Shown: piece after piece, positions 6,659-33,452 of the stretch
Layout: every line of letters starts with the position of its first letter
Position numbering within the stretch: position 1 is the first letter of the stretch
IMG/VR virus record: IMGVR_UViG_3300032038_000014
Location: 1-64,000 of that record
Origin: a virus
Lineage: Duplodnaviria > Heunggongvirae > Uroviricota > Caudoviricetes
Length of the DNA stretch: 64,000 nt
Direction: 5' to 3' (one strand)
Translations under genes and position numbers: made by a program
The notes under the pieces: generated by a model
Told to the model about the DNA's origin: nothing
Database searches by the model: none
Seen by the model: the letters and a program-made list of their open reading frames with translations, nothing else

Positions 6659-8299
6659 TTATCTAGAATACCAATAATCTAAATCAATTCGATTTCCAAT
6701 ACCAGGCACACTACCTTCTGAAGTATATTGCCACATATCATAAGCACCTTTGTATTCACACTTACTATAGTATTGAGCAACCCACTTACTGTGAGAAGCA
6801 GTAATGTTACCAATTTTATTATTAAACCAACTTAAACTAGCATATACTCCAGCTTTATAACCAGCTGCGTTTACTAAATTACAGAATTTATTACAAATAT
6901 TTGCTAATGTAGTTTTAGAAAGTTTACTTTGATATGTTGGATCTTCTACATCAAGATAAACTGGCATGTCACATTGTTTACCTTTAATATGTTCTAATGT
7001 GAATTCAGCTTCTTTCTGAGCCATTGATTCAGTTGTAGCTGTAGAGTAGAAGTAATAACCAATCTTTAATCCAGCAGCTTTTGCATTAGCATAATTATTT
7101 TCAAAACATTTATCAATAGTTGGCTTTCTAGATTCACTTCCAGTAAATCCAACTCTTAAAATAGCAAAATTAATACCATTTGCTTTAGCCTTTTGAAAAT
7201 CAGCAATACTACAATTACCTTGCCATGCTGAAATATCCATACCTTTAATACGAGTTGCACTAGCTTGTTTTATATCTCCAATACTAGTATTTTTTGGAAG
7301 AGTTGGATTAGCATTAAGCCATTTTTGCATAGCTTTAGAAGTATTTGGACCCCAAATACCATCTGGACCAGATAATCCCAGGAATTTTTGTAATGCTTTA
7401 ATTGTATTTGGACCAAGTTGTCCATCTGGACCACTTAAATTCAAATATTGCTGTAAAGCTTTAACTAAATAAGAGCCATTTACTCCATATTTAATACTAC
7501 CACTTCCAAATCCTCTATGATATGTTTTAAGTTTAGCTAATTGACCAGTGATTTTTCCATCAACAGTAGTTCCAAAAAGTTTTTGCATTTTTTTAATACT
7601 TTTTGGTCCAAAAACACCATCAACCACTAAGTTTGCTGAAGTATTTGCAGTTGAAACATTAGTTTGTTGAACTGGAGCAGGAGTAGAATCCTTAACCACA
7701 TTAATTTTCTCAACAATCCACATTTGATATACAAGACCTCTCATAGAGTTCTCATAACTATAATATCCATGTGTAGCAGAATCATTATCTCTTCCACCTG
7801 AATCTTTAGTATAAAACCAATGCTTTCCATCTTTTACATAGTAGTCAGTAAATGCTACATAATGACCACCAGCAGTCCAAACCATTCCATTTGGAGCTTT
7901 TCCACCAAGAAAAAGAATAACCCCTATACGATTTCCTTTATTTAACTCGGTCCAAGCTTTACTCATTGGATCAGCAGTTCCTATATGTACTACCTTATAT
8001 CCATAATGCTGTAAAGTTTTAGGAATGCCGCTCCATGTAGTTCCTTGATTTGCAACTGCAAATCCTTGATTAACCATCCATTGACGTACTGGTTCTGGGG
8101 TTAAATCCTTATATTGTTCTTGCTCTATGATAAGGTGTGTACATGCAACGCATCCACAACCATTACCACTGAAGGAAGACTTCTTAGTAGGATAAGGCTT
8201 AGAACCCCAACGAGAATCATATTGTTTGTATAAGTTCTTGTTCATTCCTTTCTTCCTCCTCTGCCTCAAGATTACCCATATCTTCATCAACTGTATCAT
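6659..8299 (-). CDS. Endolysin: GH25 muramidase C-terminal domain, PG_binding_1 repeats, and an N-terminal Cys-containing peptidase-like domain (546 aa)
   Basis: GH25 hallmarks IKGMDISAWQG...GINFAILRVG...AGLKIGYYFY...YLDVEDP. PG_binding_1-like segments VDGVFGPKSIKKMQKLFG and LSGPDGQLGPNTIKALQKFLGLSGPDGIWGPNTSKAMQKWL. N-terminal GNGCGCVACTH. The upstream holin ORF overlaps it. Confidence 0.8.
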   Translation of the reverse strand: MIQLMKIWVILRQRRKKGMNKNLYKQYDSRWGSKPYPTKKSSFSGNGCGCVACTHLIIEQEQYKDLTPEPVRQWMVNQGFAVANQGTTWSGIPKTLQHYGYKVVHIGTADPMSKAWTELNKGNRIGVILFLGGKAPNGMVWTAGGHYVAFTDYYVKDGKHWFYTKDSGGRDNDSATHGYYSYENSMRGLVYQMWIVEKINVVKDSTPAPVQQTNVSTANTSANLVVDGVFGPKSIKKMQKLFGTTVDGKITGQLAKLKTYHRGFGSGSIKYGVNGSYLVKALQQYLNLSGPDGQLGPNTIKALQKFLGLSGPDGIWGPNTSKAMQKWLNANPTLPKNTSIGDIKQASATRIKGMDISAWQGNCSIADFQKAKANGINFAILRVGFTGSESRKPTIDKCFENNYANAKAAGLKIGYYFYSTATTESMAQKEAEFTLEHIKGKQCDMPVYLDVEDPTYQSKLSKTTLANICNKFCNLVNAAGYKAGVYASLSWFNNKIGNITASHSKWVAQYYSKCEYKGAYDMWQYTSEGSVPGIGNRIDLDYWYSR

Positions 8300-8579
8300 C
8301 GTAACCTTCTTCAGTATAGAATTTATCTCCGATATAACCTTCTTTCTTTTCGGCCTTGAGTTGACGAGTCACTCCAGTACCTATAGCAGCCTCTGGTGAG
8401 TAGTCATTATTATAATAAGTGTTGATACCTACTATGATAGCATTAACGACAACAGACACTACTTTATACCAGAAAGTTAAAGTGTCATTCCCGAACTGTG
8501 CAACATCTGTAACAGCAAGTACAGTGTTTATAGTTACTAAAATACCTAATACAGTTCTTAATTTTGTGCCATAATTCAT
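8217..8579 (-). CDS. Holin (120 aa, two predicted transmembrane helices and a highly acidic C-terminus)
   Basis: Hydrophobic segments LRTVLGILVTINTVLAV and YKVVSVVVNAIIVGINTYY, a charged tail EEEERNEQE, and it overlaps the start of the endolysin. Confidence 0.6.
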   Translation of the reverse strand: MNYGTKLRTVLGILVTINTVLAVTDVAQFGNDTLTFWYKVVSVVVNAIIVGINTYYNNDYSPEAAIGTGVTRQLKAEKKEGYIGDKFYTEEGYDDTVDEDMGNLEAEEEERNEQELIQTI

Positions 8580-8654
8580 ATCAGTACCTCCTTTTGATAT
8601 TCCTATATATAAATGAAAAATTAAGATTTTTAGCTAATGACATTTGTCCGATAT

Positions 8655-8683
8655 TTGATTTTTTATAAATATTATCATATAAT
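8655..8683 (+). promoter_or_regulatory. Sigma70-like promoter for the plus-strand accessory operon
   Basis: TTGATT at 8655-8660, 17 bp spacer, TATAAT at 8678-8683. It lies in a divergent intergenic region upstream of an AGGAGG RBS. Confidence 0.45.
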
Positions 8684-8717
8684 TATTATATAATAAAAAT
8701 ATAAGGAGGTTTTTCAA

Positions 8718-9590
8718 ATGCCAGTTAATGATGACTTAGGAAAAAGAATGAAAGAAAATTATGAGCAAGTTTCCAAAACTCGTTTGGTAAAAAGAATGCC
8801 AGTAGCAATTAGACTGGACGGAAAAGCCTTTCATACTTTTACAAAAGGTTTTCAAAAACCATTTGATCAAATTTTAATGAGAACTATGCAAGAAACCATG
8901 AAGTATCTTTGTGAGAATATTCAAGGCTGCGTATTTGGATATACACAATCTGATGAAATTACTCTCATTCTTAAAGATTACACAAAACTTGAAACTTCTG
9001 CATGGTTTGACTATGAAGTTCAAAAAATGTGTTCTGTGTCTGCTTCAATGGCAACTATGGCTTTTAATCACATCTTTTCTCAAAAGGTTGTAGATTATAA
9101 CAACGCTCTTTATGAAGCATGGAATATATCTAATGATGATATAAAATATTCAGACACTTTACTTAATGCAGCTCAAAAAGGAGCAATGTTTGATGCTCGT
9201 TGTTTCAACATTCCAAAAGAAGAAGTTGCTAATTTAATCTATTGGCGTCAAGTTGATGCAGTTAGAAATTCTATTCAAATGGTTGGGCAAGCTAACTTTT
9301 CACAAAAACAACTTCATGGAAAATCTTGTAATATGATTCAAGATATGCTTCTTCAAGAAAAAAATATTAATTGGAATCATTTTTCAACCGATTGTAAAAG
9401 AGGAAGTTGTTGCATTAAAAATCATTATAATATAGATGGAATTTCTCTCTTTAGACCTGGAAGATTCGGAGAATGGATTATTGACCGAAATATTCCAACA
9501 TTTAAAGGTGGAGATAGATATTATATCGAAAAATTCCTTAAATCTGATGATGAAAAAACTCAAGAAGAATTAAAAATGGGAATTGTATAA
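8718..9590 (+). CDS. Thg1-like protein (tRNA-His guanylyltransferase family; 3'-5' nucleotidyl addition / tRNA 5'-end repair)
   Basis: N-terminal KRMKENYEQ...PVAIRLDGKAFHTFTKGFQKPFDQ...MQETM matches the conserved Thg1/TLP core (KxMKxYE, vRlDGraFhkF, eKPnD). Strong AGGAGG RBS. Confidence 0.65.
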   Translation: MPVNDDLGKRMKENYEQVSKTRLVKRMPVAIRLDGKAFHTFTKGFQKPFDQILMRTMQETMKYLCENIQGCVFGYTQSDEITLILKDYTKLETSAWFDYEVQKMCSVSASMATMAFNHIFSQKVVDYNNALYEAWNISNDDIKYSDTLLNAAQKGAMFDARCFNIPKEEVANLIYWRQVDAVRNSIQMVGQANFSQKQLHGKSCNMIQDMLLQEKNINWNHFSTDCKRGSCCIKNHYNIDGISLFRPGRFGEWIIDRNIPTFKGGDRYYIEKFLKSDDEKTQEELKMGIV

Positions 9591-9811
9591 TGAAAACTAA
9601 AGAACAAATTGAAAAAGAAATCGGCTTTGGAGATTGTTTTACCGTCGATGAGTTTGCAGACTATGTAACAAAGGGTTATTTTAATCGTTATGATGGAGTC
9701 GGATATTTTCATGACGGAGAAAATCAAACTAGAATTAGTGTTTGGGCTGATGTCGATACAGTACTCGAAGCAAGAGATACTTATCCGTATGTAATGTGGT
9801 ATAACAAATAG
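9590..9811 (+). CDS. Hypothetical protein (73 aa)
   Basis: Start overlaps the stop of the Thg1-like gene (TAATG). Confidence 0.4.
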   Translation: MKTKEQIEKEIGFGDCFTVDEFADYVTKGYFNRYDGVGYFHDGENQTRISVWADVDTVLEARDTYPYVMWYNK

Positions 9812-9826
9812 AAGAAAGGAGTTATT

Positions 9827-10624
9827 ATGACAGTTCAAGATAGAGTAATAGATCATTTAGTAGAAGCATCTGATATGTTTGCTTCTGATAGAATAGTTGG
9901 AATATTCCTTCAAGGAAGCCAAAACTATGGTCTTGAATTGCCTACTTCTGATGTAGACACAAAACTCATAGTAACTCCTTCCTTTGAAGAAATAGCTCTT
10001 AATAAAAAACCTCGTAGCACAACTCATATACGAGCCAATAACGAACATACTGATATAAAAGATATAAGACTTTATATGGATACTTTCAAGAAACAGAATC
10101 TTAATTTCCTTGAAATATTATTTACTCCATATAAATCTGTTAATGTTATGTATGAAGATCAGTGGGATCGTCTTGTTACCAGAAAAGAAGATATAGCAAG
10201 AATGAATCCTTATAGAGCGGTAAAATCTATGAAGGGTATAGCTATGGAGAAATGGCATGCTATGGAGCATGAATATCCAAGTAAAGTTGATGTTCTCGCT
10301 AAATTCGGTTATGATCCGAAACAGCTTCATCATCTTCTTCGTGTTGAAGATTATATAGAACGCTATATAGCTGGAGAACCATATGCGGATTGCTTGCGGC
10401 CATCCGATCCTGGGTATCTCATGGACGTGAAAATCGGAGTATTAAATTTAGATCTTGCCCGTCGTATAGGCCAACGAGCAATTGATCATGTAATAGAAAT
10501 GGCAGATAATTTTTGTAATAATATTGAGCCAAGTGAAGATCCGGATTGCGTTGAACTTCTTCGCGATGTTCAAATGGAAATAATGAAAAGGTCAATAAAA
10601 AAGGAGATAGCACATGGGATATAA
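9827..10624 (+). CDS. Pol-beta-superfamily nucleotidyltransferase (RNA-repair-associated predicted NTase type)
   Basis: GS-x10-DVD motif (GSQNYGLELPTSDVDTKL) = hG[GS]x9-13Dh[DE]. ~265 aa with a helical C-terminal domain. GAAGGAG RBS. Confidence 0.55.
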   Translation: MTVQDRVIDHLVEASDMFASDRIVGIFLQGSQNYGLELPTSDVDTKLIVTPSFEEIALNKKPRSTTHIRANNEHTDIKDIRLYMDTFKKQNLNFLEILFTPYKSVNVMYEDQWDRLVTRKEDIARMNPYRAVKSMKGIAMEKWHAMEHEYPSKVDVLAKFGYDPKQLHHLLRVEDYIERYIAGEPYADCLRPSDPGYLMDVKIGVLNLDLARRIGQRAIDHVIEMADNFCNNIEPSEDPDCVELLRDVQMEIMKRSIKKEIAHGI

Positions 10625-11396
10625 TAAGTGGTATGTTTCCGGCGATACACATGCAAATTTTTCTCGGTTTCATGCTTTAAAAGAGGAGAAAGATATTGCA
10701 GTAATCGTTCTTGGAGATACTGCTCTTAATTGGAATCTTAATGAGCATGATACCAGCCTAAAAGCATCTCTCAGTAAACGCTGGCCTGAGATTACATGGT
10801 ACATCCTTCGTGGAAACCATGATGCAAGGCCATCCGCAGTCCAAAATATAAAAACAGATTGGGACGATGAAGTTCAAGGATATGTAATGTATGAGCCAAA
10901 TTTTCTCAATATTCGTTATCTACTGGATGGAGGTGAATATATTATAGATGGCTATTCTGTTCTTACTATTGGAGGGGCTTATTCAGTAGATAAATATTAT
11001 CGTCTTGAAAATGGTTTTAGATGGTTTTCTGATGAACAATTAACTGAAAAAGAAATGAGAAATATCGAAAACATTGTTCGTAGTAAAAACTATGACTTTG
11101 TTATGACTCATACTTGTCCATATTCTTGGCGTCCTGTAGATTTATTCCTATCTGGATTAGATCAATCAACAGTTGATAATACTATGGAATTATGGTTGGA
11201 AGGATTAAAAGATGCTTTTACTTGGAATATTTGGTTGTTTGGTCATTATCATGCAGATCGTCTTGAGCGTCCGCATGTAGAGCAGTACTTTAATACAATA
11301 GAAGAATTATCTACTATATGGAATCGTTGGAACGATGAAAGTCGAGAATTAGAATGGTGGATAAGAAAAGCTCCTAATTATTATATGGGTGCTTAA
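10614..11396 (+). CDS. Calcineurin-like metallophosphoesterase
   Basis: Motifs GDTHAN, GDTALN, RGNHD, GHYH. Confidence 0.65.
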   Translation: MGYNKWYVSGDTHANFSRFHALKEEKDIAVIVLGDTALNWNLNEHDTSLKASLSKRWPEITWYILRGNHDARPSAVQNIKTDWDDEVQGYVMYEPNFLNIRYLLDGGEYIIDGYSVLTIGGAYSVDKYYRLENGFRWFSDEQLTEKEMRNIENIVRSKNYDFVMTHTCPYSWRPVDLFLSGLDQSTVDNTMELWLEGLKDAFTWNIWLFGHYHADRLERPHVEQYFNTIEELSTIWNRWNDESRELEWWIRKAPNYYMGA

Positions 11397-11427
11397 AAAG
11401 GAAGGGTTGAAACCTTCCTTTTATTTA
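11396..11427 (+). terminator. Rho-independent terminator
   Basis: GGAAGGGTT gaa AACCTTCC stem followed by TTTTATTTATT; the T-run doubles as the upstream part of the next promoter. Confidence 0.6.
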
Positions 11428-11456
11428 TTGATTTTTTATTAAAAATTTGTTATAAT
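11428..11456 (+). promoter_or_regulatory. Sigma70-like promoter (TTGATT, 17 bp spacer, extended -10 TGTTATAAT)
   Basis: TTGATT at 11428-11433, TATAAT at 11451-11456. Confidence 0.5.
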
Positions 11457-11490
11457 AAATTATAAGAAAAAATTAAGGATAGAGATTTTT

Positions 11491-12279
11491 ATGAAATATT
11501 TTATTGACTTTGAAGCAACTCAGTTTTCTAACGAAATCATCTCGATTGGTTGCGTTAGAGAAAACGGAGATGAATTTTATTCATTAGTAAATCCAAAAAA
11601 GAAAATAACTGCTTTTATTACGGAGTTAACTGGTATTACAGATGAAATGCTCCAGACAGCTCCTACACCAGAGCAGGTTTTTAGTCAGTTTTTTGATTGG
11701 TGTGCAGAAGTCGAAGATGATTTACCTATTTTTTATTGCTATGGTAATTCAGATATTCATTTTGTACAAAAGAATTTTAGCAAGTCAAAGAATTTTAAAG
11801 CCAAGAATATTCTTGGGTATCTCTATTCCGATCTTTATGACTATGAGCCTATGGTCAGAAAGCATTTTGGTTTAATTCAAGCTGTAAGTTTAATTAAAGT
11901 TACTAATTATTACAAGCAGGAAGAAATAACTCAAAATCATAATGCTTTATCAGATGCTAAAATGTTAAAGTTTGTTTATGAACAGATACAAGAACACACT
12001 CCATCTGAAGATAGAGATGCTTTTCCAGAATATCAGAGTAAACAGACTCAGCCTCAGGAAGATTGGTCTAAATATACCGTTCATAGAATCAAAAAAGGAA
12101 AAATTGAAGAAACTTTTGTTGGCATGGATGCGGCCGTTGATTGGGTATTTAATCAGCTTCCAGATAATGGTGAAAAAGATAAAGTTATTCGTAAAAATTT
12201 AGCAAATAAGATTAAAAATTCTAGTAATACACGAAAGAAATATTTAACTTATCGTTGGAAAGTGGAAAAAAAGAAATAA
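11491..12279 (+). CDS. DEDD-family 3'-5' exonuclease (DnaQ/RNase T-like)
   Basis: Exo I motif FIDFEAT near the N-terminus, Exo II-like YGNSDIHF, Exo III-like HNALSDA. Confidence 0.6.
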   Translation: MKYFIDFEATQFSNEIISIGCVRENGDEFYSLVNPKKKITAFITELTGITDEMLQTAPTPEQVFSQFFDWCAEVEDDLPIFYCYGNSDIHFVQKNFSKSKNFKAKNILGYLYSDLYDYEPMVRKHFGLIQAVSLIKVTNYYKQEEITQNHNALSDAKMLKFVYEQIQEHTPSEDRDAFPEYQSKQTQPQEDWSKYTVHRIKKGKIEETFVGMDAAVDWVFNQLPDNGEKDKVIRKNLANKIKNSSNTRKKYLTYRWKVEKKK

Positions 12280-12302
12280 ATTATAGAAAGGAGAATTATT
12301 AA

Positions 12303-13742
12303 ATGAGTGAGCATGTAGGTTACATTGTAGAAGTTAAGCAGCTTCGTGAACACTCTAATGCAGATCGTATGCGTGTAGCAACTTTCTTCGGAAATGATAC
12401 TTGCGTAGATTTGAATGTTAAGATTGGTGATAAAGGAATTTATTTTCCAACTGACCTTCAGCTTTCTGTAGAGTTTTGTGAACAGAATAATCTCGTTCGT
12501 AAAAAGGACGAAAATGGAAACAACATTGGTGGATATATGGATCCTTCCAAGAGAAATGTTTCAACTATTAAGCTGCGTGGAGAAAAGTCTGATGGACTAT
12601 ATCTTCCAATTGAATGTCTTGCTTATACTGGAATTGATCTTAATTCCCTTTCTGTAGGAACTCCAATTGATGTAATTAATGCACATGAAATTTGTTGCAA
12701 ATATATCCCTCGTGGAAAAGTGCGTCATAGTAACAAGGAAGGTAATAGAACTCGTAAAAAGAAAGTTCCAGTAGCACCTCTATTTACAGAGCATGCAGAT
12801 ACAGAACAGCTTGCATATAATCTTGGAGAATTCCACCCTGGAGATCTTCTTGAAATCACTCTTAAAATGCACGGAACTTCACAGCGTACAGCATATGTTC
12901 CAGTTTTGAAAGGTTTTAAGAAAACTTTTTGGGAGAAAATCTGCGGGAAGCCAGGTCAGCCGATCTATGATTGGGGATATGTTTCTGGAACTCGTAGAAC
13001 TGTTCTTGACAACTTTGATGGTGGATTTTATGGATCTAATGACTTCCGTGAACCTCATTCTAAATTCTTTGAGGGAAAACTCCATAAGGGAGAAGAAGTA
13101 TATTATGAAGTAGTAGGTTTCCAGACTTCTGGAGCACCTATTATGGGATCTGCTGCAAACAAGAAAACTGCTGATAAGGAATTCATCAAACAGTATGGAG
13201 ATACAACTGTATTCTCTTATGGTTGCTCTCCAGAAGGATATAAGACAATGTATGGAAATGATGATATGGGAGCTTTTGAACTTCCAGTTGCTCTTCCTCA
13301 GTCTGATTTCTATGTATATAGAATGACTATGACAAATGAGGACGGGGATGTTATCGAATACACTCCAGAATATATGCGTTACCGTTGTGAGCAGATGGGA
13401 TGTAAAACAGTACCAGTTCTTGCAAAGGCATATGTTGATGAAAATTGTGTAGAAATTCTATGGGCTGCTAATCCTGCGGCCATCGATCATGCGATCACAT
13501 CAGCGGAGTCTCTTGGAGACGGAGTGCGTCAGGTAGCAGAATATTTCTACGATGGTCCAGATCCAGTTGGAAAGACTCATGTTCGTGAGGGTGTAGTTGT
13601 TAGAATTGTAAATAAACCAAAATTCTGTGCGTTTAAACATAAGAATTTCTACTTCAAGGCTCTTGAAGGAATCATAAAAGCAAGCGCTGAAGCACCAGAT
13701 ATGGAAGAAGCAGAAGAGGTTCTTAATGAAACAGCAGAATAA
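12303..13742 (+). CDS. ATP-dependent RNA ligase (Rnl2-like nucleotidyltransferase) fused to an N-terminal tRNA-binding OB-fold domain
   Basis: N-terminal VGYIVEVKQLREHSNADRMRVATF resembles EMAP/Trbp111-type tRNA-binding domains. KMHGTS matches the KxHGT(N) motif I of T4 Rnl2-type ligases. GC3-richer codon usage than neighbouring genes. Confidence 0.55.
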   Translation: MSEHVGYIVEVKQLREHSNADRMRVATFFGNDTCVDLNVKIGDKGIYFPTDLQLSVEFCEQNNLVRKKDENGNNIGGYMDPSKRNVSTIKLRGEKSDGLYLPIECLAYTGIDLNSLSVGTPIDVINAHEICCKYIPRGKVRHSNKEGNRTRKKKVPVAPLFTEHADTEQLAYNLGEFHPGDLLEITLKMHGTSQRTAYVPVLKGFKKTFWEKICGKPGQPIYDWGYVSGTRRTVLDNFDGGFYGSNDFREPHSKFFEGKLHKGEEVYYEVVGFQTSGAPIMGSAANKKTADKEFIKQYGDTTVFSYGCSPEGYKTMYGNDDMGAFELPVALPQSDFYVYRMTMTNEDGDVIEYTPEYMRYRCEQMGCKTVPVLAKAYVDENCVEILWAANPAAIDHAITSAESLGDGVRQVAEYFYDGPDPVGKTHVREGVVVRIVNKPKFCAFKHKNFYFKALEGIIKASAEAPDMEEAEEVLNETAE

Positions 13743-13920
13743 ACTTTGCCCCTATAGAAAAGAAATCATAGTAACTGATTATCACTGGGAGGGGAATACT
13801 CCTCTTCCAGGAGCTTACTATGAAAGTTTTGGAGAATGTTATGGTGAATTATGTGCGGCCTGGCTTGAAGATCATTTTACTGGTTTTGAAGGTTGTGCAT
13901 TAGCGAGGAAAATGAAATGA
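13726..13920 (+). CDS. Hypothetical Cys-rich small protein (64 aa) overlapping gene ends
   Basis: ORF overlaps the ligase stop and the NADAR start; uncertain whether it is translated. Confidence 0.3.
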   Translation: MKQQNKLCPYRKEIIVTDYHWEGNTPLPGAYYESFGECYGELCAAWLEDHFTGFEGCALARKMK

Positions 13921-14354
13921 ATAAAATAGATTGTTTTGATGGAGATTTTGCTTTTTTAAGTAACTTCTATCCTTCTCTTATTAAGGAGGATGGATTAGAG
14001 TATCCTACTGTGGAGCATTATTTTCAAGCAATGAAAACTAATGATATATATGGTCGAAGACTTGTAGCAGTAGCTAGTACTCCTGGTAAAGCAAAACGAA
14101 TCGGACGCAATCTTCGTTTACGCAGAGATTGGGAAAATGTGAAATATGATGTAATGAAACATGCTGTTCATGAAAAATTTCTTGATGCAACTCTACGTAA
14201 ACAACTTCTCTCTACTGGAGATGCATATCTTGAAGAAGGAAACACTTGGCATGATAATATATGGGGCAATTGTCATTGTGAAAAATGTAAAGATATTCAA
14301 GGTACAAATTGGTTAGGAACTATTCTGATGGAAGAACGAAAAAATTGTCAATAG
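13917..14354 (+). CDS. NADAR (YbiA/DUF1768) domain protein
   Basis: DGDFAFLSNFYPS...LEYPTVEHYFQAMK matches the NADAR signature (F-x-x-x-x-x-LSNFYP ... EH-x-FQ-x-x-K). Start chosen at ATG 13917 with a GAGGAAA RBS; the upstream TTG at 13893 is less likely. Confidence 0.65.
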   Translation: MNKIDCFDGDFAFLSNFYPSLIKEDGLEYPTVEHYFQAMKTNDIYGRRLVAVASTPGKAKRIGRNLRLRRDWENVKYDVMKHAVHEKFLDATLRKQLLSTGDAYLEEGNTWHDNIWGNCHCEKCKDIQGTNWLGTILMEERKNCQ

Positions 14355-14376
14355 GAGGGAGCTTAAAACCTCCTAT

Positions 14377-14404
14377 TGATTTTTTTATAAAATTTTGTTA
14401 TAAT
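14377..14404 (+). promoter_or_regulatory. Sigma70-like promoter overlapping the preceding terminator hairpin (14352-14376)
   Basis: TAGGAGGGAGCTTAAAACCTCCTA hairpin, then TTGATTTTTTT ... TTGTTATAAT. Confidence 0.5.
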
Positions 14405-14433
14405 ATATATGATAAAAAGAGAGAAAAAGAAAA

Positions 14434-15177
14434 ATGACATATACAACTAATATAACAGATGTTAATCCATATCATATTTGGATTGGTGATTATGGATTAA
14501 CAACAGATAATAAAACAACACAATTAGTAAATACTTATTTAAGCAATATTACTTATAAAGACCTCGAAGAAAAATTCGAGAGAAAGGAGTCAGATATAAT
14601 GAGTTTTGATTTTGGTAACATGTTTAATGGTATGTTCAAGCCTGTTGGACGTGGAATGTGTAAAATCGGAATGAATGGCAAGGTTGCTATTAAGACTTCT
14701 TCTGGTTACAAAACCTTTGACATTGATAAGAGAAAACTCGTTAACTGTGATAGTTTCGCTTTCGACATGGATGGTGCTTTTTGGGTAGTCCCAACATTTA
14801 AAGTCGAAAAGGGAGACATTATTCTCGTTAATGGAAAACCTCGTAGTGTCATTGAAGTAAAGGAAAATTCAATCAAAACTTTCTCTTATGAGGATAGTAC
14901 AATTGATGAAATTATTCCAGAACATCACGTCTTCCTTGGCAAAACTTACTGCTACGGCAAAATCTTCAGTCCTTTCATGAATATGGCTAAGGACAATGGA
15001 GAAGGTATGTCATCACTTATGAACATGATGATGATGAGTCAGATGTTTAGCGGAAACTCCAATGATGGAATGAATCCATTTATGATGATGATGCTTATGA
15101 ATGGAAATGATAACCCATTTGCAAATCTTTTTGAAGGAGCATTTAACTTTGGAGTAGATGAAGAAAGTGAGGGTTAA
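14434..15177 (+). CDS. Hypothetical protein with Met-rich low-complexity C-terminus (247 aa)
   Basis: C-terminal MNMMMMSQMF...PFMMMMLMNG tracts. 3 nt from the downstream vWA gene, so translational coupling is likely. Confidence 0.5.
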   Translation: MTYTTNITDVNPYHIWIGDYGLTTDNKTTQLVNTYLSNITYKDLEEKFERKESDIMSFDFGNMFNGMFKPVGRGMCKIGMNGKVAIKTSSGYKTFDIDKRKLVNCDSFAFDMDGAFWVVPTFKVEKGDIILVNGKPRSVIEVKENSIKTFSYEDSTIDEIIPEHHVFLGKTYCYGKIFSPFMNMAKDNGEGMSSLMNMMMMSQMFSGNSNDGMNPFMMMMLMNGNDNPFANLFEGAFNFGVDEESEG

Positions 15178-15179
15178 TT

Positions 15180-16064
15180 ATGGGAAGCGGAAGTTGGTCA
15201 AGTACGGTATATGATAGTTATACAACTGCAACAAAAGGAATGAGCACTGCTGCATATGCATCAGCAGTAAATCTTTCAACACAAGACATTTTCAAAAGCG
15301 TTAGCCTTCATAAGGATCTCAATCCAATGAATGTAATACGTGAGTGTTGCGATAGCGAGGAGCATCCAAACACTTTTCCAGTTATCCTCGCTCTTGATGT
15401 AACTGGAAGTATGGGCCAAGCCGCTATTAAAACTGCTCAGAAGCTCAATGATATTATGACTGATTTATATGCAGATAAAGATCTTCCAGATATTGAATTC
15501 TGCATTATGGGAATCGGAGATTGTTCTTGCGATAGATTTCCAATTCAAATTTCTCAGTTTGAATCTGATATTCGTATTGCTGAACAGCTTGACCAGATTT
15601 TCTTTGAATTTGGTGGTGGCGGAAATAAATACGAAAGCTATACTGCGGCTTGGTATATGGGGGCTAGACATTGTAAACTTGATTGCTGGGAGAGAGGTCA
15701 AAAAGGTTTAATTATTACCATGGGTGATGAACTTCCTAATCCTTATATTCCAATTAGAGGAATGAGAGATGGAGGCCTCAATGAGGTAACGGGTGATTCC
15801 CTTCAGGATGATATTGAAACTAAAGATCTTCTTCCAGAAGTACTTGAAAAGTTTAATGTATATCATCTTTCAATAGATGATTCAAGTTCGTCATATAGCT
15901 ATCATCAGAGACTTGGAATTGATGAAGAATGGACAGAGTTACTTGGAGACCATTACCAAGTATGCAATCTTGATAATCTCCCAAAAGTAATTACTGAAAT
16001 TGTTATAGCCAATAGCAAAGGAGGAGGAATTACTGTTAATTCTGATTCTGAAATAGTTTGGTAA
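15180..16064 (+). CDS. von Willebrand factor A (vWA) domain protein
   Basis: MIDAS motif D-x-T-G-S-M in VILALDVTGSMGQAA, downstream ITMGDE. Confidence 0.6.
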   Translation: MGSGSWSSTVYDSYTTATKGMSTAAYASAVNLSTQDIFKSVSLHKDLNPMNVIRECCDSEEHPNTFPVILALDVTGSMGQAAIKTAQKLNDIMTDLYADKDLPDIEFCIMGIGDCSCDRFPIQISQFESDIRIAEQLDQIFFEFGGGGNKYESYTAAWYMGARHCKLDCWERGQKGLIITMGDELPNPYIPIRGMRDGGLNEVTGDSLQDDIETKDLLPEVLEKFNVYHLSIDDSSSSYSYHQRLGIDEEWTELLGDHYQVCNLDNLPKVITEIVIANSKGGGITVNSDSEIVW

Positions 16065-16076
16065 GGAGGGTTTGCG

Positions 16077-17243
16077 ATGAAAGATATTAAGATTGTCATC
16101 GGCGCCAATTATGGTGATGAGGGTAAAGGATTAGTTACTAGGCACTTTGTTCGAGAAGCTAGTAATCCAATTGTTATACTTCATAATGGAACCGCACAGA
16201 GAGGACATACTGTTGATTATGGTCCAAACTGTCGCCATATATACCATCATTTTGGTAGCGGCACAGCTGACAATACACCTACCTTCTTCGCAGATACTTT
16301 CTGGATTCATCCAATGAGTTTTACTCTTGAGTGGAAAGAATTGGAATATAAAGGTGTTAAGGTACCTAGGTCTTTTGCAGATGATAAATGTAGAGTAGTT
16401 ACTCCATTTGATATGTTTGCAGACCATGCAACTGAAGCATATATTCAGTTAGAAAGAGGCGAACGAGAATTCGGTTCTTGCGGCCTAGGTACCTGGTGCG
16501 CGACGGATAGGTTTCCAGTTCATTCTTATTTGCTTAAATCTTGGTATAAAGCCGTACAAGGTTGTCTTAATAATCAAGAAGCATATTATGTTAGTTTAAT
16601 GGAACACTCTCTTGACGAGTGTTTAAAAGTATTAAAATCTCGTAAGGTTGATTTAGAAAAATTACCTACTTATAAAAGATATTTTGATAAAACAGATGGT
16701 CTTTTTAAATATCTGTGCAATAACTTTTTAAGAGATTTAATTTTCTTCTTTGGTCATTGTGAGCGTATTAGCTTTGATAATATTTATGATAGATATAACA
16801 CTTTAATTTTTGAAAATGGACAGGGTCTTGGTCTTGATATGGATGTCGACAATGATTGGCATACTACTTCGCATACGGGTTTGGTAAATCCTATGGCGTT
16901 ACTTGCGGGCAGGACCGATCCTCAAGTCGAGGTATGTTATGTTACACGCTCATATCTTACTCGTCATGGAGTAGGACCGTTAGAAGAAACGGTTAAAAAA
17001 ACAGAAATAAATGCAACAATGCATGATTTAACCAATGTACCAAATGAATTTCAGGGCACTCTTCGATATGGTTATCTAGATGATGTTGCACAAGCAGCTA
17101 GAATAGAAAAGGATTGGAATCTGGCCGCAGGTTTATCGAATTTTAAAAAGACAATGGCAGTAACTCATTGTAATGAGTTTGAGGATCTTTATCAGAAAGC
17201 AAATTATGTTAGTTATAATCCATATAGTATATTAAAACGGTAA
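16077..17243 (+). CDS. Adenylosuccinate synthetase family protein (PurA-like; PurZ-like candidate)
   Basis: N-terminal P-loop IVIGANYGDEGKGL (PurA GxxWGDEGKGK), GTAQRGHT (PurA GGHNAGHT), and GSCGLGTW in the GTTGRGIGP position. Shorter than bacterial PurA (388 aa). Confidence 0.65.
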   Translation: MKDIKIVIGANYGDEGKGLVTRHFVREASNPIVILHNGTAQRGHTVDYGPNCRHIYHHFGSGTADNTPTFFADTFWIHPMSFTLEWKELEYKGVKVPRSFADDKCRVVTPFDMFADHATEAYIQLERGEREFGSCGLGTWCATDRFPVHSYLLKSWYKAVQGCLNNQEAYYVSLMEHSLDECLKVLKSRKVDLEKLPTYKRYFDKTDGLFKYLCNNFLRDLIFFFGHCERISFDNIYDRYNTLIFENGQGLGLDMDVDNDWHTTSHTGLVNPMALLAGRTDPQVEVCYVTRSYLTRHGVGPLEETVKKTEINATMHDLTNVPNEFQGTLRYGYLDDVAQAARIEKDWNLAAGLSNFKKTMAVTHCNEFEDLYQKANYVSYNPYSILKR

Positions 17244-17744: not shown

Positions 17745-18479
17745 ATGGCAAAACATTATGCAATAGCAGATATTCATGGTATGTATGATATTTATACACA
17801 AGTATGTGATATGCTAGAGCCAGATGATGTCGTATATTTCCTTGGAGATGCTGGAGATCGTGGATATGATTGTTTCCGTTGTGTGAAAGAAATTTATGAG
17901 AATCCACAATGGATTTATATGAAAGGTAATCATGAAGATCTTATGGTTAAAGGACTTCGTGAACAAATGTATCATGGTCTTAAAGGAACTGAAGATTTTC
18001 AGCTTTGGCATTATAATGGTGGAGGAGCCACTTTTTATGATTGGGTAAATGATGGAGAAGATTGGACTTGGATAGAACGCCTTGATAGTTTACCAGTCCT
18101 TCTAGAATACACAAATCCAAAAGGAATCACTTTTCATATGAGCCATGCTGGTTATACCTGTGGTCATAAAGATGAAATGTGGAATGATGAATTAGTTTGG
18201 TCTAGAAATCATTTCGCAGATTCTTGGGACGGAGAATTTTATCCAAACGATATATGTATTCATGGTCATACTCCAATTGAATATCTAGTTAGAAAACTAA
18301 ACTGGCTCGAAAAAGGTACAAAACCTTATTATGTTGGACAACCAGAAGCAAGAAGTTATTGTAATGGACATAAGATTTGTATTGATAATGGAGTTTTTTA
18401 TACAAAATCAACTGTTTTATATGATTTAGATGAAATGGTAGCAATACCGCTATATAGCAATTCTGACTTTGAATGGTAG
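17745..18479 (+). CDS. PPP-family Ser/Thr phosphoprotein phosphatase (lambda-phosphatase / ApaH-like)
   Basis: GDIHG, GDAGDRGYD, GNHE motifs with the canonical spacing. Confidence 0.7.
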   Translation: MAKHYAIADIHGMYDIYTQVCDMLEPDDVVYFLGDAGDRGYDCFRCVKEIYENPQWIYMKGNHEDLMVKGLREQMYHGLKGTEDFQLWHYNGGGATFYDWVNDGEDWTWIERLDSLPVLLEYTNPKGITFHMSHAGYTCGHKDEMWNDELVWSRNHFADSWDGEFYPNDICIHGHTPIEYLVRKLNWLEKGTKPYYVGQPEARSYCNGHKICIDNGVFYTKSTVLYDLDEMVAIPLYSNSDFEW

Positions 18480-18488
18480 GAGGGAACC

Positions 18489-18773
18489 ATGGGAAGATCA
18501 AATGTAGAACAACATAAATTCTTTTGTATTCAGTGTGGGCAGGAGGGTATCCCACTAGCCCGCAAGAAAAATCGTAAGAGAGAGCGTTTTCATCGCAAAG
18601 TAATGTATTGTTATCATTGTCACGAAGATATTAATCATGTTGAATGTCGCGATGAAGAAGATATAAGAATTTTTAAAGAGAATTTTAGAAATGGGGTGTA
18701 TCAGAATGAGTGCAAAGAATCTTTGGATCATGTGCGGAATACCAGGCAGTGGCAAGTCAACTTGGTGCTCTAA
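18489..18773 (+). CDS. Zinc-ribbon protein (94 aa)
   Basis: CIQCG ... CYHCHEDINHVEC. Its 3' end overlaps the PNK gene by ~68 nt. Confidence 0.4.
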   Translation: MGRSNVEQHKFFCIQCGQEGIPLARKKNRKRERFHRKVMYCYHCHEDINHVECRDEEDIRIFKENFRNGVYQNECKESLDHVRNTRQWQVNLVL

Positions 18774-19209
18774 GGCTGCAAAAAAACCAGGAGCAATAAG
18801 AGTATCTCGTGACGTTATTCGTTTTAATATGCTTGAAGAAGATGAAGATTATTTTGCTCATGAGTTTGATGTATTTAGAGAATTTATTAAGCAGATTAAT
18901 GAAGGGTTAGCTGATGAAAAGGTTAAAGATATTTTTGTTGATGCAACTCATTTAAATGAAAAGTCTAGAAATAAGGTGCTTGATCGCCTTATTAATCTTG
19001 ATGGAGTAGCAATTAATGCGGTTAATTTCTTAATTGATTTCGATCTCGCGTGGGAAAGAAATAACTTGCGGAAAGGCCGCGCTGTGGTTCCATATGGTAA
19101 ACTTTGCGGTATGAATAAAATTTTCAATCCTGCAAAAGAAGGCGAAAAGTATCATTATGACAATATTATAAATATTAATGTTGCAAAGGACGGTGATGAA
19201 ATAGTATGA
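18706..19209 (+). CDS. Polynucleotide 5'-kinase (T4 Pnk-like P-loop kinase domain)
   Basis: IMCGIPGSGKSTW ... VSRDVIR parallels T4 Pnk TIGCPGSGKSTW ... NRDDYR. Start chosen at ATG 18706; the alternative is ATG 18691. Confidence 0.6.
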   Translation: MSAKNLWIMCGIPGSGKSTWCSKAAKKPGAIRVSRDVIRFNMLEEDEDYFAHEFDVFREFIKQINEGLADEKVKDIFVDATHLNEKSRNKVLDRLINLDGVAINAVNFLIDFDLAWERNNLRKGRAVVPYGKLCGMNKIFNPAKEGEKYHYDNIININVAKDGDEIV

Positions 19210-19760
19210 TATATGTAACTTCAGATTTGCATTTTTGTCATGATAGAGAATTTCTCTATAAGCCAAGAGGTTTTGACAATGTTTACGATATGAATAAAGC
19301 TATTGTTCAAAATTGGAATTCAATAGTACAGCCAGAAGATGATGTATATCTTCTTGGTGATATTATGTTGAATGATAATGAACTCGGTCGTAAACTGCTA
19401 TGCGATCTGAAAGGTAATATACATATTGTCATTGGAAATCATGATACAGATGCAAGAGTAGAAATTTACAATAACTGCTGGAATGTAGTAGAAATTGCTT
19501 ATGCTTTGAGATTGAAATATAGAAAACATACTTTCTTTCTTTCTCACTTCCCTTGTATGACCGCAAATCTTGAAAAAGAGTCTTTGCGTCAATGTACTTG
19601 CAATTTGTACGGACATACGCATCAAAGAACTAATTTTTATCAAGACATTCCATTTATGTATCATGTTGGAGTAGATTCTCATAATTGTACTCCAGTATCT
19701 ATGGATCAAGTCTTGTTAGATATGTATGCTAAAGCTGATGAATGTAAGAAACAGCTATGA
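19206..19760 (+). CDS. Calcineurin-like metallophosphoesterase (candidate 2',3'/3'-phosphatase partner of the kinase)
   Basis: SDLHF, GDIMLND, GNHD, GHTH motifs; translationally coupled to the kinase (ATGA overlap). Confidence 0.6.
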   Translation: MIYVTSDLHFCHDREFLYKPRGFDNVYDMNKAIVQNWNSIVQPEDDVYLLGDIMLNDNELGRKLLCDLKGNIHIVIGNHDTDARVEIYNNCWNVVEIAYALRLKYRKHTFFLSHFPCMTANLEKESLRQCTCNLYGHTHQRTNFYQDIPFMYHVGVDSHNCTPVSMDQVLLDMYAKADECKKQL

Positions 19761-19809: not shown

Positions 19810-21201
19810 ATGAATTTTTTGACTAGTCATTTAACCCTAATTCCGATTGTTATAGTTGCCGTTTTGGTGATTATACTCCTAATTACAGGATATGTAAAAG
19901 CACCGCCTGATATGGCTTATATTATTTCAGGATTGCATAAAAAGCCTCGTATCCTTATAGGAAAAGCCGGAATTAAGATTCCATTCCTCGAGAGACTTGA
20001 TAAACTTTCTCTTGGAGCGATTCAGATTGATGTAAAAACTGGATCCGCCGTTCCAACAGCAGAGTATATCAATGTTAGAGTCGATTCGACGGTTTCAGTT
20101 CGAATTGGTCAAAGTCCAGAGATGATTACTCTTGCAGCACAAAACTTCTTAAATGTTGGAAGAGATGTAATTGCGGCCAAGGTCAATGATCTCCTCGAGG
20201 GTAACATTCGTGAGATTGTAGGCCAGATGAAACTGACAGAAATGGTAAGTGACCGAAAAGCATTTAGTGAAAAGGTACAAGAAAATGCTGTACCAGATCT
20301 TCAGCGCTTTGGTCTTGAACTAGTATCCTTCAATGTACAGAACTTCTCTGATGATAGTGATGTTATTAATAACCTCGGTATTGATAATGTATCACAGATT
20401 AGTAAGGCTGCAGCTATCGCTAAGTCTAATGCCGAACGAGAAGTTGAAGTTGCAAAAGCTGCCAATGCAAAGGCTGCGAATGATGCTAAAACGGACGCAG
20501 CAGAGCAGATTGCAATTCGAAATAATGACTTTGCAGTAAAGCAGGCAGAACTTCAGAAAATTGCTGATACACAGAAAGCACAGGCTGAAGCAGCTAAAGA
20601 TATTGAGGCAGAAAATCAGCGTAAAATTCGTGATGTTGCAGCAACAAATGCAGATATTGCGAAGGCTGAGCGTGAAGCAGATCTGAAACAAAAACAGATT
20701 GAACTGAAAGAGTATGAACTTGATGCTCTGGTTCGTAAGCAGGCTGATGCTGACAAATATGCTGCTGAACAGAAGGCTGCTGCAGATCTTATTCGTCGTC
20801 AGAAAGACGCAGAAGCTGCTGCATATGAAATTAAGCAGAAAGCAGATGCTCTAAAAGCAGAGGCTGAAGCTAAACGATTTGCAGCAGAGCAAGAGGCTGC
20901 AGGTATTGCCGCAGTTGGAGAAGCCGAAGCTACAGCCATTGAGAAAAAAGCAGAAGCACAGAAAAAGATGGGAGAGGCTTCAGTCCTCGACATGTATTTC
21001 CAGGTACTCCCAGAAATTGTTACCGCTGCTGCTCAACCTCTTGGCAATGTAGACGCAATCACTATGTATGGTGATGGAAATTCTACAAAACTCGTTAAGG
21101 ATGTTATGAATTCTACTAATCAAGTACTTGAGGCAATTAAGTCTACTACTGGAATTGATATTAACAATCTTATTAACGTAGTTTCTAAAACAAAAGAGTA
21201 A
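19810..21201 (+). CDS. SPFH/Band-7 (flotillin/YqiK-like) membrane protein
   Basis: N-terminal TM helix, PHB-domain core (ISGLHKKPRILIGKAGIKIPFLERL...), and a long Ala/Glu/Lys-rich flotillin-type coiled coil. Confidence 0.7.
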   Translation: MNFLTSHLTLIPIVIVAVLVIILLITGYVKAPPDMAYIISGLHKKPRILIGKAGIKIPFLERLDKLSLGAIQIDVKTGSAVPTAEYINVRVDSTVSVRIGQSPEMITLAAQNFLNVGRDVIAAKVNDLLEGNIREIVGQMKLTEMVSDRKAFSEKVQENAVPDLQRFGLELVSFNVQNFSDDSDVINNLGIDNVSQISKAAAIAKSNAEREVEVAKAANAKAANDAKTDAAEQIAIRNNDFAVKQAELQKIADTQKAQAEAAKDIEAENQRKIRDVAATNADIAKAEREADLKQKQIELKEYELDALVRKQADADKYAAEQKAAADLIRRQKDAEAAAYEIKQKADALKAEAEAKRFAAEQEAAGIAAVGEAEATAIEKKAEAQKKMGEASVLDMYFQVLPEIVTAAAQPLGNVDAITMYGDGNSTKLVKDVMNSTNQVLEAIKSTTGIDINNLINVVSKTKE

Positions 21202-32453: not shown

Positions 32454-33452
32454 ATGTGGACTTATTTATTAATAACACTAATTTTTGGATTAATAATTGG
32501 TTTTGTAATTACAAGACTAATTCTTTCCAAAAAACTAAGAAATGTAGCAGAAATCAATCAAGCGGTCAAAGAGGAAAATGATCGAGCTCAAATTGAACTT
32601 AATCGTACACAAGTCGAGTTAGAATCTGCCCGAAAACAACAATCGGATTTACGCCAACAGCAAAATGAATTAAGTACTACATTATCTGAATTATCGGCTA
32701 AAATTTTAACAAGCCAGGAGGAAGCAGATACTGCGGTAAAAACTTATTACGATAGAATTCTTAATGCTGCTAAACACAATATTCAACTTGATATTGAACA
32801 ATTAGAAGCTGATTATACTAAAGCAGAACAAGAATATCAACAAGAATATTTAACAGTATTAAATGAAGCTGTCGAATCTTTAAAACAAGAAATAGATTGT
32901 AAAACTACAATCACTTATGAGTTAACACAACAATTAAATGAGCTTCAAGATAAAGTTAATGCTGCTGTTGAAGCAAGTAAACGAGCAGTTGAATTAGAAC
33001 AGAAAAAAGATTTTTATCGACTCGTTATTTCAGATATTGATGCTGAAGAAATAAGGAGATTGCGGGAAGTGGTTCCATATCTGCGCAATAGTGAACCACT
33101 AAATAAAGTAATATGGAAGGTTTATTATGAACGCCCTTATACAGACTTAATTGGAAGAGTTGTAGGATCGGGTGTTCATTGTGGCATTTACAAGATTACT
33201 AATATAGAAAATAATATGTGTTATGTTGGTCAAGCTGTTAATATAGCTGATCGATGGAAACAACATATCAAAAGAGGCCTGGGTGCAGACACGCCAACAA
33301 GAAATAAGCTATATCCTGCTATGATGGCTTTTGGAGTAGAAAATTTCACTTTTGAAATAGTAGAAGAGTGTACAAGAGATAAATTAAATGAAAGAGAGGA
33401 CTATTGGCAGGATTATTTTAAAGCAAAAGAATTTGGATATAGTATTAAATAG
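32454..33452 (+). CDS. Membrane-anchored coiled-coil protein with C-terminal GIY-YIG nuclease domain
   Basis: N-terminal TM (LLITLIFGLIIGFVITRLIL), ~200 aa Gln/Glu-rich coiled coil, C-terminal GIYKITNIENNMCYVGQAVNIADRWKQHIKRG ... EREDYWQDYF. Confidence 0.6.
   Translation: MWTYLLITLIFGLIIGFVITRLILSKKLRNVAEINQAVKEENDRAQIELNRTQVELESARKQQSDLRQQQNELSTTLSELSAKILTSQEEADTAVKTYYDRILNAAKHNIQLDIEQLEADYTKAEQEYQQEYLTVLNEAVESLKQEIDCKTTITYELTQQLNELQDKVNAAVEASKRAVELEQKKDFYRLVISDIDAEEIRRLREVVPYLRNSEPLNKVIWKVYYERPYTDLIGRVVGSGVHCGIYKITNIENNMCYVGQAVNIADRWKQHIKRGLGADTPTRNKLYPAMMAFGVENFTFEIVEECTRDKLNEREDYWQDYFKAKEFGYSIK

Follow-up and report, generated by a model that had tools for sequence, protein, structure and literature searches.

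A phage-borne bacterial-type Thg1-like protein gene heading a cluster of predicted RNA-repair genes

The stretch of phage DNA analyzed here (64,000 nucleotides; positions 1 to 64,000 of the IMG/VR virus record IMGVR_UViG_3300032038_000014, Caudoviricetes), referred to below as the window, carries at positions 8718–9590 of its plus strand a gene for a Thg1-like protein (TLP), a predicted template-dependent 3'-5' RNA polymerase. Judged by its similarity, the 290-aa product is a bona fide bacterial-type TLP and not a Thg1-type protein. The gene heads a cluster rich in RNA-repair genes, and the preferred interpretation, to which a probability of roughly 0.6 was assigned, is that the TLP would act within a heal, restore and seal toolkit keeping tRNAs usable against host ribonuclease defenses or toxins. 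The observed basis for this consists of the family membership, the intact active site, the fold, the gene arrangement, a promoter-like motif and terminator-like hairpins.

Identity, active site and predicted fold of the TLP

The open reading frame (ORF) starts with an ATG located 8 nt downstream of a ribosome-binding site, AAGGAGG (8703–8709, plus strand), which was read off the sequence. It matched the Pfam Thg1 profile PF04446 over positions 2–130 of 130 with 108.3 bits (cut-off 29.2; E = 3.5e-31) and the phage family PHROG 4717 ("tRNA-His guanylyltransferase") with E = 1.4e-86. The PDB sequence search retrieved the structure 4KGK of the Bacillus thuringiensis TLP (BtTLP) with E = 8.1e-60, while archaeal TLP and eukaryotic Thg1 structures scored between 1e-8 and 1e-6 (7e-9 to 1e-6 for the yeast, human and Candida Thg1). 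These scores greatly exceed what chance would give, and the assignment to the bacterial type was made because the BtTLP match was far stronger than those to the archaeal TLP and eukaryotic Thg1. Within its family the protein is a divergent member, every phage copy deposited so far being less than 60% identical to it.

An earlier note on this DNA, made from the sequence alone, had claimed clear Thg1/TLP core motifs in the ORF, and these proved to be real. When the residue roles and numbering of Hyde et al. (2013; PMC3701042) were transferred through the alignment to 4KGK, all functionally mapped BtTLP residues were identical in the window protein. The three catalytic carboxylates, D30/D75/E76 in BtTLP (D29/D76/E77 in hTHG1), correspond to D34, D79 and E80 and were invariant in 28 sequences; two of the three carboxylates conserved in Thg1/TLP bind the two Mg2+ ions (PMC3701042). 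The residues of the activation step, BtTLP K43/S74, are represented by K47/S78, the nucleotidyl-transfer site for the incoming nucleoside triphosphate (NTP), R28/K99/R131, by R32/K103/R161, and the residues E12, R147, H35 and T38 by E16, R177, H39 and T42, respectively. Apart from K47 (K/R), the mapped positions were invariant in the subfamily alignment of 26 sequences, and H39 was at least 90% conserved after addition of two distant phage copies (28 sequences). With the metal-binding Asp/Glu residues, whose absence the earlier note had named as refuting, present in the structure-guided alignment, the earlier observation therefore stands. The methionine typical of TLPs, M158 in BtTLP, is found as M188 in the local context RNSIQM, whereas Thg1 has an Asn at this position (N161 in ScThg1, N158 in hTHG1) within the motif HINNLYN, giving INNLYN as the corresponding stretch. 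Taken with the fold described next, the intact residues suggest that the gene encodes an active bacterial-type enzyme.

The AlphaFold2 model of the TLP, built from an input alignment that excluded the two GenBank phage sequences, had a predicted local distance difference test (pLDDT) score of 86 and a predicted TM-score (pTM) of 0.86, and contained a polymerase-like palm and fingers fold. All 32 Foldseek matches of the model in the PDB with E ≤ 1e-3 were Thg1/TLP structures, with 4KGM as the best (E = 1.8e-22) and a TM-score of 0.85 (target-normalized) for the top matches 4KGM/4KGK. Two regions of the protein were variable. The first is a subfamily-specific, hypervariable helical insertion of approximately 35 aa (about residues 121–155; positions 9078–9182, plus strand), missing both from BtTLP, where it appears as an alignment gap, and from the Bacillus phage FADO copy, and with a sequence and a length that vary across 26 relatives; it was modeled as an extension of the helix 97–133 followed by a second helix, 139–154, with pLDDT of 85–94. 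The second region, at about residues 235–252, lies between the predicted strands 230–234 and 253–256 and contains R246 and R249 close to the invariant W253. In MaTLP, a flexible beta-hairpin (R198–R215), poorly conserved save for one Arg, reads the tRNA elbow and measures the length of the acceptor stem (PMC4820378). By its position, the region 235–252 of the modeled window protein is probably the equivalent of this hairpin.

The kinship of Thg1 with the GGDEF and Cas10-type palm domains, including the CRISPR polymerases (mCpol), raises the question of a function outside RNA repair, such as production of nucleotide signals or decoys, or action on DNA ends. Apart from this relationship (PMC2904730), such a function could be favored by weak Foldseek matches to GGDEF and Csm1 (E ~0.06) and by the hypervariable insertion, which might signal a changed function. 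It is opposed by the candidate MaTLP-like tRNA-elbow hairpin predicted in the model and by the neighboring genes, which code for RNA-end enzymes, and was considered very improbable.

Gene neighborhood, transcription units and proposed repair pathway

The earlier note had placed the TLP gene first in an RNA-repair operon. The leading position in a repair-rich cluster was borne out, but the single operon resolved into several tandem predicted units having one promoter type, with terminator-like hairpins in between. A promoter-like sequence, TTGATT-N17-TATAAT, is located upstream of the TLP gene at 8655–8683 (plus strand). The pattern TTGATT-N16-18-TATAAT occurs in the window in eight exact copies, all on the plus strand and with a T-rich spacer in common (starting at 8655, 11428, 14376, 17282, 29792, 34601, 37108 and 51965), against 0.42 expected, and four aligned copies had a common extended T-rich core, TTGATTTTTT...TATAAT. 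The motif probably represents a class of early or middle phage promoters delimiting short transcription units.

The first predicted unit (U1, 8718–11396) includes, all on the plus strand, the TLP gene and three further genes. A 73-aa ORF (9590–9811; phrog_14149), beginning with an ATG that shares 1 nt with the stop codon of the TLP gene (TAATG), is present in one of the relatives discussed below (L003, 88% TLP identity) and is missing from another (L004, 67%). It is followed by a gene for a Pol-beta superfamily nucleotidyltransferase (NTase; 9827–10624; phrog_388, E = 4e-20) with the GS...DVD motif at residues 30–44, which was tentatively placed in the RlaP family as a divergent member: its own score of 19.3 bits against PF10127 RlaP fell short of the cut-off (23 bits), and 19 of its 23 close homologs matched this profile (best E = 1.2e-6). 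The last gene, for the calcineurin-like metallophosphoesterase MPE1 (10614–11396; Pfam Metallophos, E = 2.3e-10; phrog_1649; motifs GDTH, GD and GNHD), starts within the NTase gene. The unit ends with a terminator-like hairpin having a 10-bp stem and a T run (11396–11422, plus strand), directly followed by the promoter-like copy at 11428–11456.

The second predicted unit (U2, 11491–14354, plus strand) begins with a DEDDh (RNase T/DnaQ-like) 3'-5' exonuclease gene (11491–12279; Pfam RNase_T, E = 4.4e-18; motifs DFE and HNALSD) and continues with a gene for an ATP-dependent RNA ligase with an N-terminal OB fold of the DRB0094/PHA02142 type (12303–13742; phrog_968, E = 9.5e-64), in which motif I, KMHG, is located at residues 188–191. 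The ligase assignment is valid at the superfamily level only, because the scores with Pfam RNA_ligase and with TIGR02306 (E = 1.8e-11), as well as with the PHA02142 OB profile, remained below the curated cut-offs. A 64-aa ORF and a gene for a NADAR domain protein (13917–14354; Pfam NADAR, E = 1.7e-25) complete the unit; the ATG start of the latter was taken from the gene call in L003, while the ORF list has a TTG at 13893. Downstream of it, a weaker hairpin (14357–14374) precedes the promoter-like copy at 14376–14404. The NADAR protein also had a weak match, under the cut-off, to the NCBIfam "NADAR family anti-phage protein" (E = 3e-14), and in a repair unit it might serve to strip nucleic-acid ends of ADP-ribose.

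Two uncharacterised genes and an adenylosuccinate-synthase-like gene make up the predicted unit U3 (14434–17243), and the unit U4, predicted from 17348 onward, includes a second repair group, situated 8–10 kb downstream. This group, also on the plus strand, consists of the lambda-phosphatase-type metallophosphoesterase MPE2 (17745–18479; Pfam Metallophos; phrog_246), whose nearest PDB structure is the lambda phosphatase 1G5B (E = 1.4e-10), a P-loop polynucleotide 5'-kinase-like protein (18691–19209; AAA_33, E = 9.5e-18; phrog_505 "polynucleotide kinase," E = 2.2e-20) with the Walker A motif GIPGSGKS, and the Metallophos_2 phosphoesterase MPE3 (19206–19760), whose start overlaps the kinase stop codon. 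The structures nearest to the kinase were T4 Pnk (1LY1, E = 2e-5) and the kinase domain of Clostridium thermocellum Pnkp (4GP7, E = 1e-3), while PDB sequence searches with the NTase (no match), the ligase and MPE1 gave nothing useful. The catalytic motifs are intact in the NTase, the three phosphoesterases, the exonuclease, the ligase and the kinase. The repair set is larger than the one listed in the earlier note because it includes the 5'-kinase, which is needed by TLP and ATP-dependent ligases alike.

From this arrangement we infer enzymatic activity of the TLP, a tRNA substrate, cooperation with the neighboring gene products and a counter-defense purpose. Transcribed first in its unit from the recurrent sigma-70-like phage promoter, the TLP would, by homology with BtTLP and MaTLP, bind tRNA or a different RNA whose 5' end is recessed. 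It would use ATP or GTP to activate the 5'-monophosphate and then extend the end 3'-5' with nucleotides chosen by Watson-Crick pairing to the 3' strand of the acceptor stem, which serves as the template, until the stem is complete. Healing would be performed by the T4-Pnk-like 5'-kinase and the phosphoesterases, with MPE1 probably removing a 3'-phosphate or a cyclic phosphate, and trimming by the DEDDh exonuclease. Restoration would be shared by the TLP at 5' ends and the RlaP-type NTase at 3' ends, and sealing would be left to the RNA ligase, with the NADAR protein possibly clearing ADP-ribose adducts. The tRNAs protected in this way would be those of the host and, in related phages, also those encoded by the phage. 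The particular contribution of the TLP would be repair of one lesion beyond the reach of the other enzymes, the loss of nucleotides from a base-paired 5' end.

The characterized proteins of both families are compatible with these roles. The statement of the earlier note that bacterial and archaeal TLPs repair 5'-truncated tRNAs by templated 3'-5' addition agrees with published work (PMC3061083): BtTLP and MaTLP act on 5'-truncated tRNAs of any identity (PMC3061083; PMC4820378), and BtTLP, which is not specific for tRNA-His, has a 5–160-fold preference for such tRNAs over the −1 addition (PMC3061083). RlaP adds one or two untemplated nucleoside monophosphates to damaged RNA 3' ends and improves the function of tRNAs missing a nucleotide before ligation (PMC12776372).

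The claim that the gene is phage-borne was likewise upheld, the window having the appearance of a segment from the genome of a large virulent phage. The coding strand switches at the TLP gene, where the GC skew also changes its sign. The minus-strand genes upstream encode a holin-like protein (a weak, sub-threshold match to Holin_SPP1), a GH25/PG_binding_1 lysin and an 894-aa CW_7/NlpC-P60 lysin. Elsewhere in the window there are genes for a Pol III-alpha-type DNA polymerase, topoisomerase II subunits, a NAD-dependent DNA ligase, a DnaB-like helicase, a primase, NrdD, RecJ, a Dda-like helicase and PhoH. The DNA polymerase has only approximately 41% identity with its counterparts in Enterococcus and SPbeta-like phages. 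Megablast of positions 8000–16000 against deposited phages gave no match, so that the phage is undeposited. The TLP relatives concentrate in genomes and metagenome-assembled genomes (MAGs) of gut Clostridia (Lachnospiraceae, Ruminococcus, Oscillospiraceae) and in IMG/VR contigs of 90–200 kb, and the host is therefore probably a gut Firmicute. Neither a tRNA gene nor an Rfam match at the gathering threshold was detected in the window, and hence no local RNA substrate or partner.

Several other genes of the window were recorded. The adenylosuccinate-synthase-like gene of U3 (16077–17243, plus strand) had its best PHROG match to family 1211, "2-aminooxy adenylosuccinate synthetase" (PurZ-type; E = 1.6e-38), while NCBIfam preferred PurA (8e-17) over PurZ (5.5e-4); it could serve 2-aminoadenine (Z) DNA or purine salvage. 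Together with the ORFs at 14434–16064 it recurs in approximately 20 related phages of IMG/VR, in most cases lying upstream of the TLP gene by a few kb. An SPFH/Band 7 (flotillin-like) gene (19810–21201, plus strand) is located just past the kinase-phosphoesterase pair, and in the Fusobacterium phage Fnu1 a prohibitin-family gene (L001, 8389–9198) lies three genes downstream of its TLP gene. A 332-aa protein (32454–33452, plus strand), encoded after the NAD-dependent DNA ligase gene, matches GIY-YIG-type homing endonucleases with its C-terminal third. The 1606-aa ORF on the minus-strand arm (57158–61978), which had no PHROG match at E ≤ 1e-5, may be structural.

Linkage among relatives, neighboring tRNAs and alternative roles

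The gene order TLP–NTase–MPE–exonuclease–ligase–NADAR was retained in the relatives with 88% (L003) and 67% (L004) TLP identity, and in L004 the kinase and Metallophos_2 pair follows two genes (~230 nt) downstream of the NADAR gene. Two larger sets of relatives were examined for repair-type genes by iterated profile searches: a close set of 80 IMG/VR loci with TLP identity of 59–67% and a diverse set of 80 loci from GTDB genomes and MAGs with identity of 39–77%; tblastn with the window proteins undercounted the associations, missing, for example, a ligase gene directly upstream of the TLP gene in the locus L153. In the diverse set a ligase, polynucleotide kinase (PNK), phosphoesterase or RlaP gene was present within 5 kb of the TLP gene in 53 of the 80 loci, with direct adjacency of a ligase gene on the 5' side in seven, of a phosphoesterase gene on the 3' side in seven and of a PNK gene on the 5' side in four. 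The linkage was read as real but modular, in agreement with Anantharaman et al. (2010; PMC2904730), given that many of the "genome" loci in the diverse set are probably mis-binned phage contigs and the counts have no matched null model.

Several side observations were made at these loci. A Pfam-confirmed metallophosphoesterase gene lies directly downstream of the TLP gene in two cellular or MAG contigs (L109, 7998–9583; L153, 7285–9710). In L153, which has the RNA-ligase-domain gene directly upstream, the TLP appears split into two ORFs (8001–8498 and 8532–8771) and may be a pseudogene. A 214-kb relative carries an OrfB_IS605/Cas12f-like TnpB gene 1.4 kb downstream of the TLP gene (L006, 10193–11866). 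A Schlafen AlbA_2 protein encoded near the TLP gene of L109 was considered as a link to defense and dropped, its pairing of AlbA_2 with HATPase_c_4 being taken by us as a regulator-like architecture and not that of a Schlafen nuclease.

A number of points weigh against the toolkit interpretation. In the close set a repair-type gene was located within 5 kb of the TLP gene in only 21 of the 80 loci and directly adjacent to it in none, so that the TLP is kept independently of the cluster and its role may be broader; both in Fnu1 and in FADO it is situated away from repair genes. Since a terminator-like hairpin separates the TLP and ligase units, their co-transcription is not predicted. The insertion of approximately 35 aa has no counterpart in the characterized TLPs and could alter the choice of substrate. 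No enzymatic or genetic study of any phage TLP was found in the literature searched. The earlier note had suggested that the gene counters host nucleases directed at the 5' ends or the acceptor stems of tRNAs, which goes beyond the published record: the anti-phage tRNases reported in the surveyed literature cut anticodon arms or 3' CCA tails, and none was found to cut the 5' acceptor strand, leaving a defense of this kind hypothetical.

The scarcity of repair neighbors in the close set also bears on a housekeeping role, in which the TLP would mend tRNAs left 5'-truncated when RNase P cuts the densely packed tRNA arrays of the phage itself imprecisely; this would be independent of any host defense and would tie the TLP to the repair cluster only loosely. 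Such miscleavage was proposed as a source of TLP substrates by Rao et al. (PMC3061083). The TLP is conserved while its repair neighbors vary, with 59 of the 80 close relatives having none within 5 kb, and in a survey of 166 TLP loci with flanks of 8–10 kb, which yielded 163 tRNAs, tRNA genes were present at 35 loci, partly in arrays of 7–13. On the other hand, the 64-kb window has neither tRNA genes nor Rfam matches, the TLP gene is placed among repair enzymes both there and in the relatives with 88 and 67% identity, and adjacency of ligase, PNK or MPE genes is frequent in the diverse set. Quality control as the actual function was judged plausible, with odds well below those of the toolkit; the two are compatible and not mutually exclusive.

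The same tRNA survey bears on two further alternatives. According to the first, suggested by the family name and the GenBank annotations, the protein would be a true tRNA-His guanylyltransferase adding G−1 to the phage or host tRNA-His for charging by HisRS. BtTLP can add a templated N−1 to tRNA-His, and in yeast its complementation of a thg1 deletion is weak (PMC3061083), and one phage tRNA-His near a TLP gene ends atypically (L065, 17444–17519), having an 8-bp acceptor stem with the top pair U−1/G73 against the bacterial G−1/C73. However, by similarity (8e-60 against ~1e-7 for Thg1) and by Met188 the window protein is of the TLP type, and BtTLP favors truncated tRNAs 5–160-fold over the −1 addition (PMC3061083). 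Furthermore, tRNA-His accounted for only 2 of the 163 tRNAs near TLP genes, the second of which (L133, 688–761; two T–T mismatches in the acceptor stem) has G−1 encoded opposite C73 in the bacterial style. Given the TLP-type residues and the scarcity of tRNA-His, a tRNA-His-specific role was rejected as improbable.

The second alternative is 5'-editing as known from protist mitochondria, in which mismatched tRNA 5' ends would be excised, perhaps by the adjacent phosphoesterase, and resynthesized by the TLP. DdiTLP3 acts in this manner in Dictyostelium mitochondria (PMC6471195), and the succession of a TLP and a metallophosphoesterase gene recurs, being found in the window, in L109 and L153 and in the seven downstream adjacencies of the diverse set. 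The acceptor stems did not conform to it: mismatches at the pairs 1:72–3:70 were present in just 6 of the 163 tRNAs, of which two were tRNA-Met with the initiator-typical 1:72 mismatch, while others resembled boundary calls. Editing was rejected on this pairing and is as improbable as the signaling or DNA-directed function.

The phage arrays near TLP genes also contained unusual tRNAs, a suppressor-like one with the anticodon CTA (called "Pyl") and several with unassignable anticodons (L018, 312–401; L095, 11709–11800; L122, 11453–11545; L136, 5953–6026), which may hint at stop-codon recoding in some of the relatives.

With the toolkit as the preferred reading, a narrower and rather doubtful version of it can be formulated, in which the TLP, the RlaP-like NTase and the phosphoesterase, encoded together in U1, would form a dedicated nucleotide-restoration module serving the tRNA 5' strand (templated) and the 3' end (untemplated). 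If this were true, gut Clostridia would deploy an undescribed defense or toxin trimming tRNA 5' ends or acceptor stems, and the hypervariable insertion of the TLP would be a trace of an arms race with that defense or with an inhibitor.

Comparison with known systems

The earlier note had regarded 3'-5' polymerization as an activity not classically attributed to phages, which is contradicted by existing records. The phage family PHROG 4717, to which the window protein belongs, includes copies from Bcp1, BM15, FADO, Fnu1, the Pseudomonas phage 201phi2-1 and the Lak megaphages, all of the deposited ones less than 60% identical to it. TLP homologs were found in 162 GenBank phage records (46 from Bacillus phages, 15 from Prevotella Lak phages, 13 from Caulobacter phages, 11 from Mycobacterium phages, and others), many of them annotated as tRNA-His guanylyltransferase. 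A role of phage Thg1 in counter-defense RNA repair was proposed by Anantharaman et al. (2010; PMC2904730), who also reported bacterial Thg1-PNK-ligase neighborhoods, and by Iyer et al. (2021; PMC7824862), who listed Thg1 beside RlaP, the CCA-adding enzyme and RNA ligases among the RNA-repair adaptations of jumbo phages. In contrast to the copies in Fnu1 and FADO, which are not next to ligase or RlaP genes, the window TLP heads a repair cluster.

The window TLP adds little beyond the copies in culturable Bacillus, Fusobacterium and Pseudomonas phages; it is of value as a well-documented case whose repair neighborhood is unusually complete and whose promoter/terminator layout is clear. Its significance would grow only if the TLP–RlaP–phosphoesterase unit counters a new class of tRNA-end-trimming defense. 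A review of TLPs from 2019 makes no mention of phages (PMC6471195). Phage TLPs placed amid heal, restore and seal genes offer a natural setting where a measurable phenotype should follow from losing the gene, expected in the integrity of tRNA 5' ends and in plating on hosts with tRNA-targeting defenses, and such copies could reveal the purpose of 3'-5' polymerization outside eukaryotes.

The closest characterized enzyme is BtTLP (4KGK/4KGM; Rao et al., 2011; Hyde et al., 2013), whose homology to the window protein is full-length outside the insertion, its residues 2–122 and 126–237 aligning to 5–126 and 156–274. The two proteins agree in every residue of the active site and of nucleotide binding, the Met typical of TLPs among them, and the folds are alike. 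The window protein differs in having the insertion 121–155, a beta-hairpin loop of greater length and a short tail at the C terminus, and in being phage-borne and set among repair genes. BtTLP itself is 74–76% identical to the TLPs of the Bacillus cereus-group myophages Hobo, BM15, Bcp1 and Bc431v3 (records H41–H52, e.g., MH638309.1, 114206–114916), so that the characterization of BtTLP amounts to that of a near-phage enzyme; BtTLP may be of phage origin or recently exchanged with phages. With DdiTLP3 of Dictyostelium mitochondria (PMC6471195) the window TLP would have the chemistry in common, a templated rebuilding of the 5'-truncated acceptor stem. Unlike there, no systematic 5' mismatches were found in the surveyed tRNAs of TLP-carrying phages, and therefore no editing is required.

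In the arrangement of its genes the window resembles the RlaP/RNA-ligase repair systems (Burroughs and Aravind, 2016), as far as they are portrayed in the paper citing them (PMC7824862), with a RlaP-like NTase, a ligase, phosphoesterases and a kinase clustered together. It departs from them in its NTase, which is divergent and taken alone falls under the Pfam cut-off, and in the addition of the TLP as a restorer of the 5' side, a combination described as only sporadic (PMC7824862). The logic of phage-encoded healing and sealing is the same as in phage T4 with its Pnk and Rnl1, and T4 Pnk is the nearest to the window kinase among the structures. The tRNA repair by T4 Pnk and Rnl1 counters the anticodon nuclease PrrC and is limited to healing and sealing of a clean cut. 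Compared to T4, the window cluster has a ligase of a different type (with an N-terminal OB fold, DRB0094-like) and adds the putative nucleotide restorers, the TLP for 5' ends and the RlaP-type enzyme for 3' ends.

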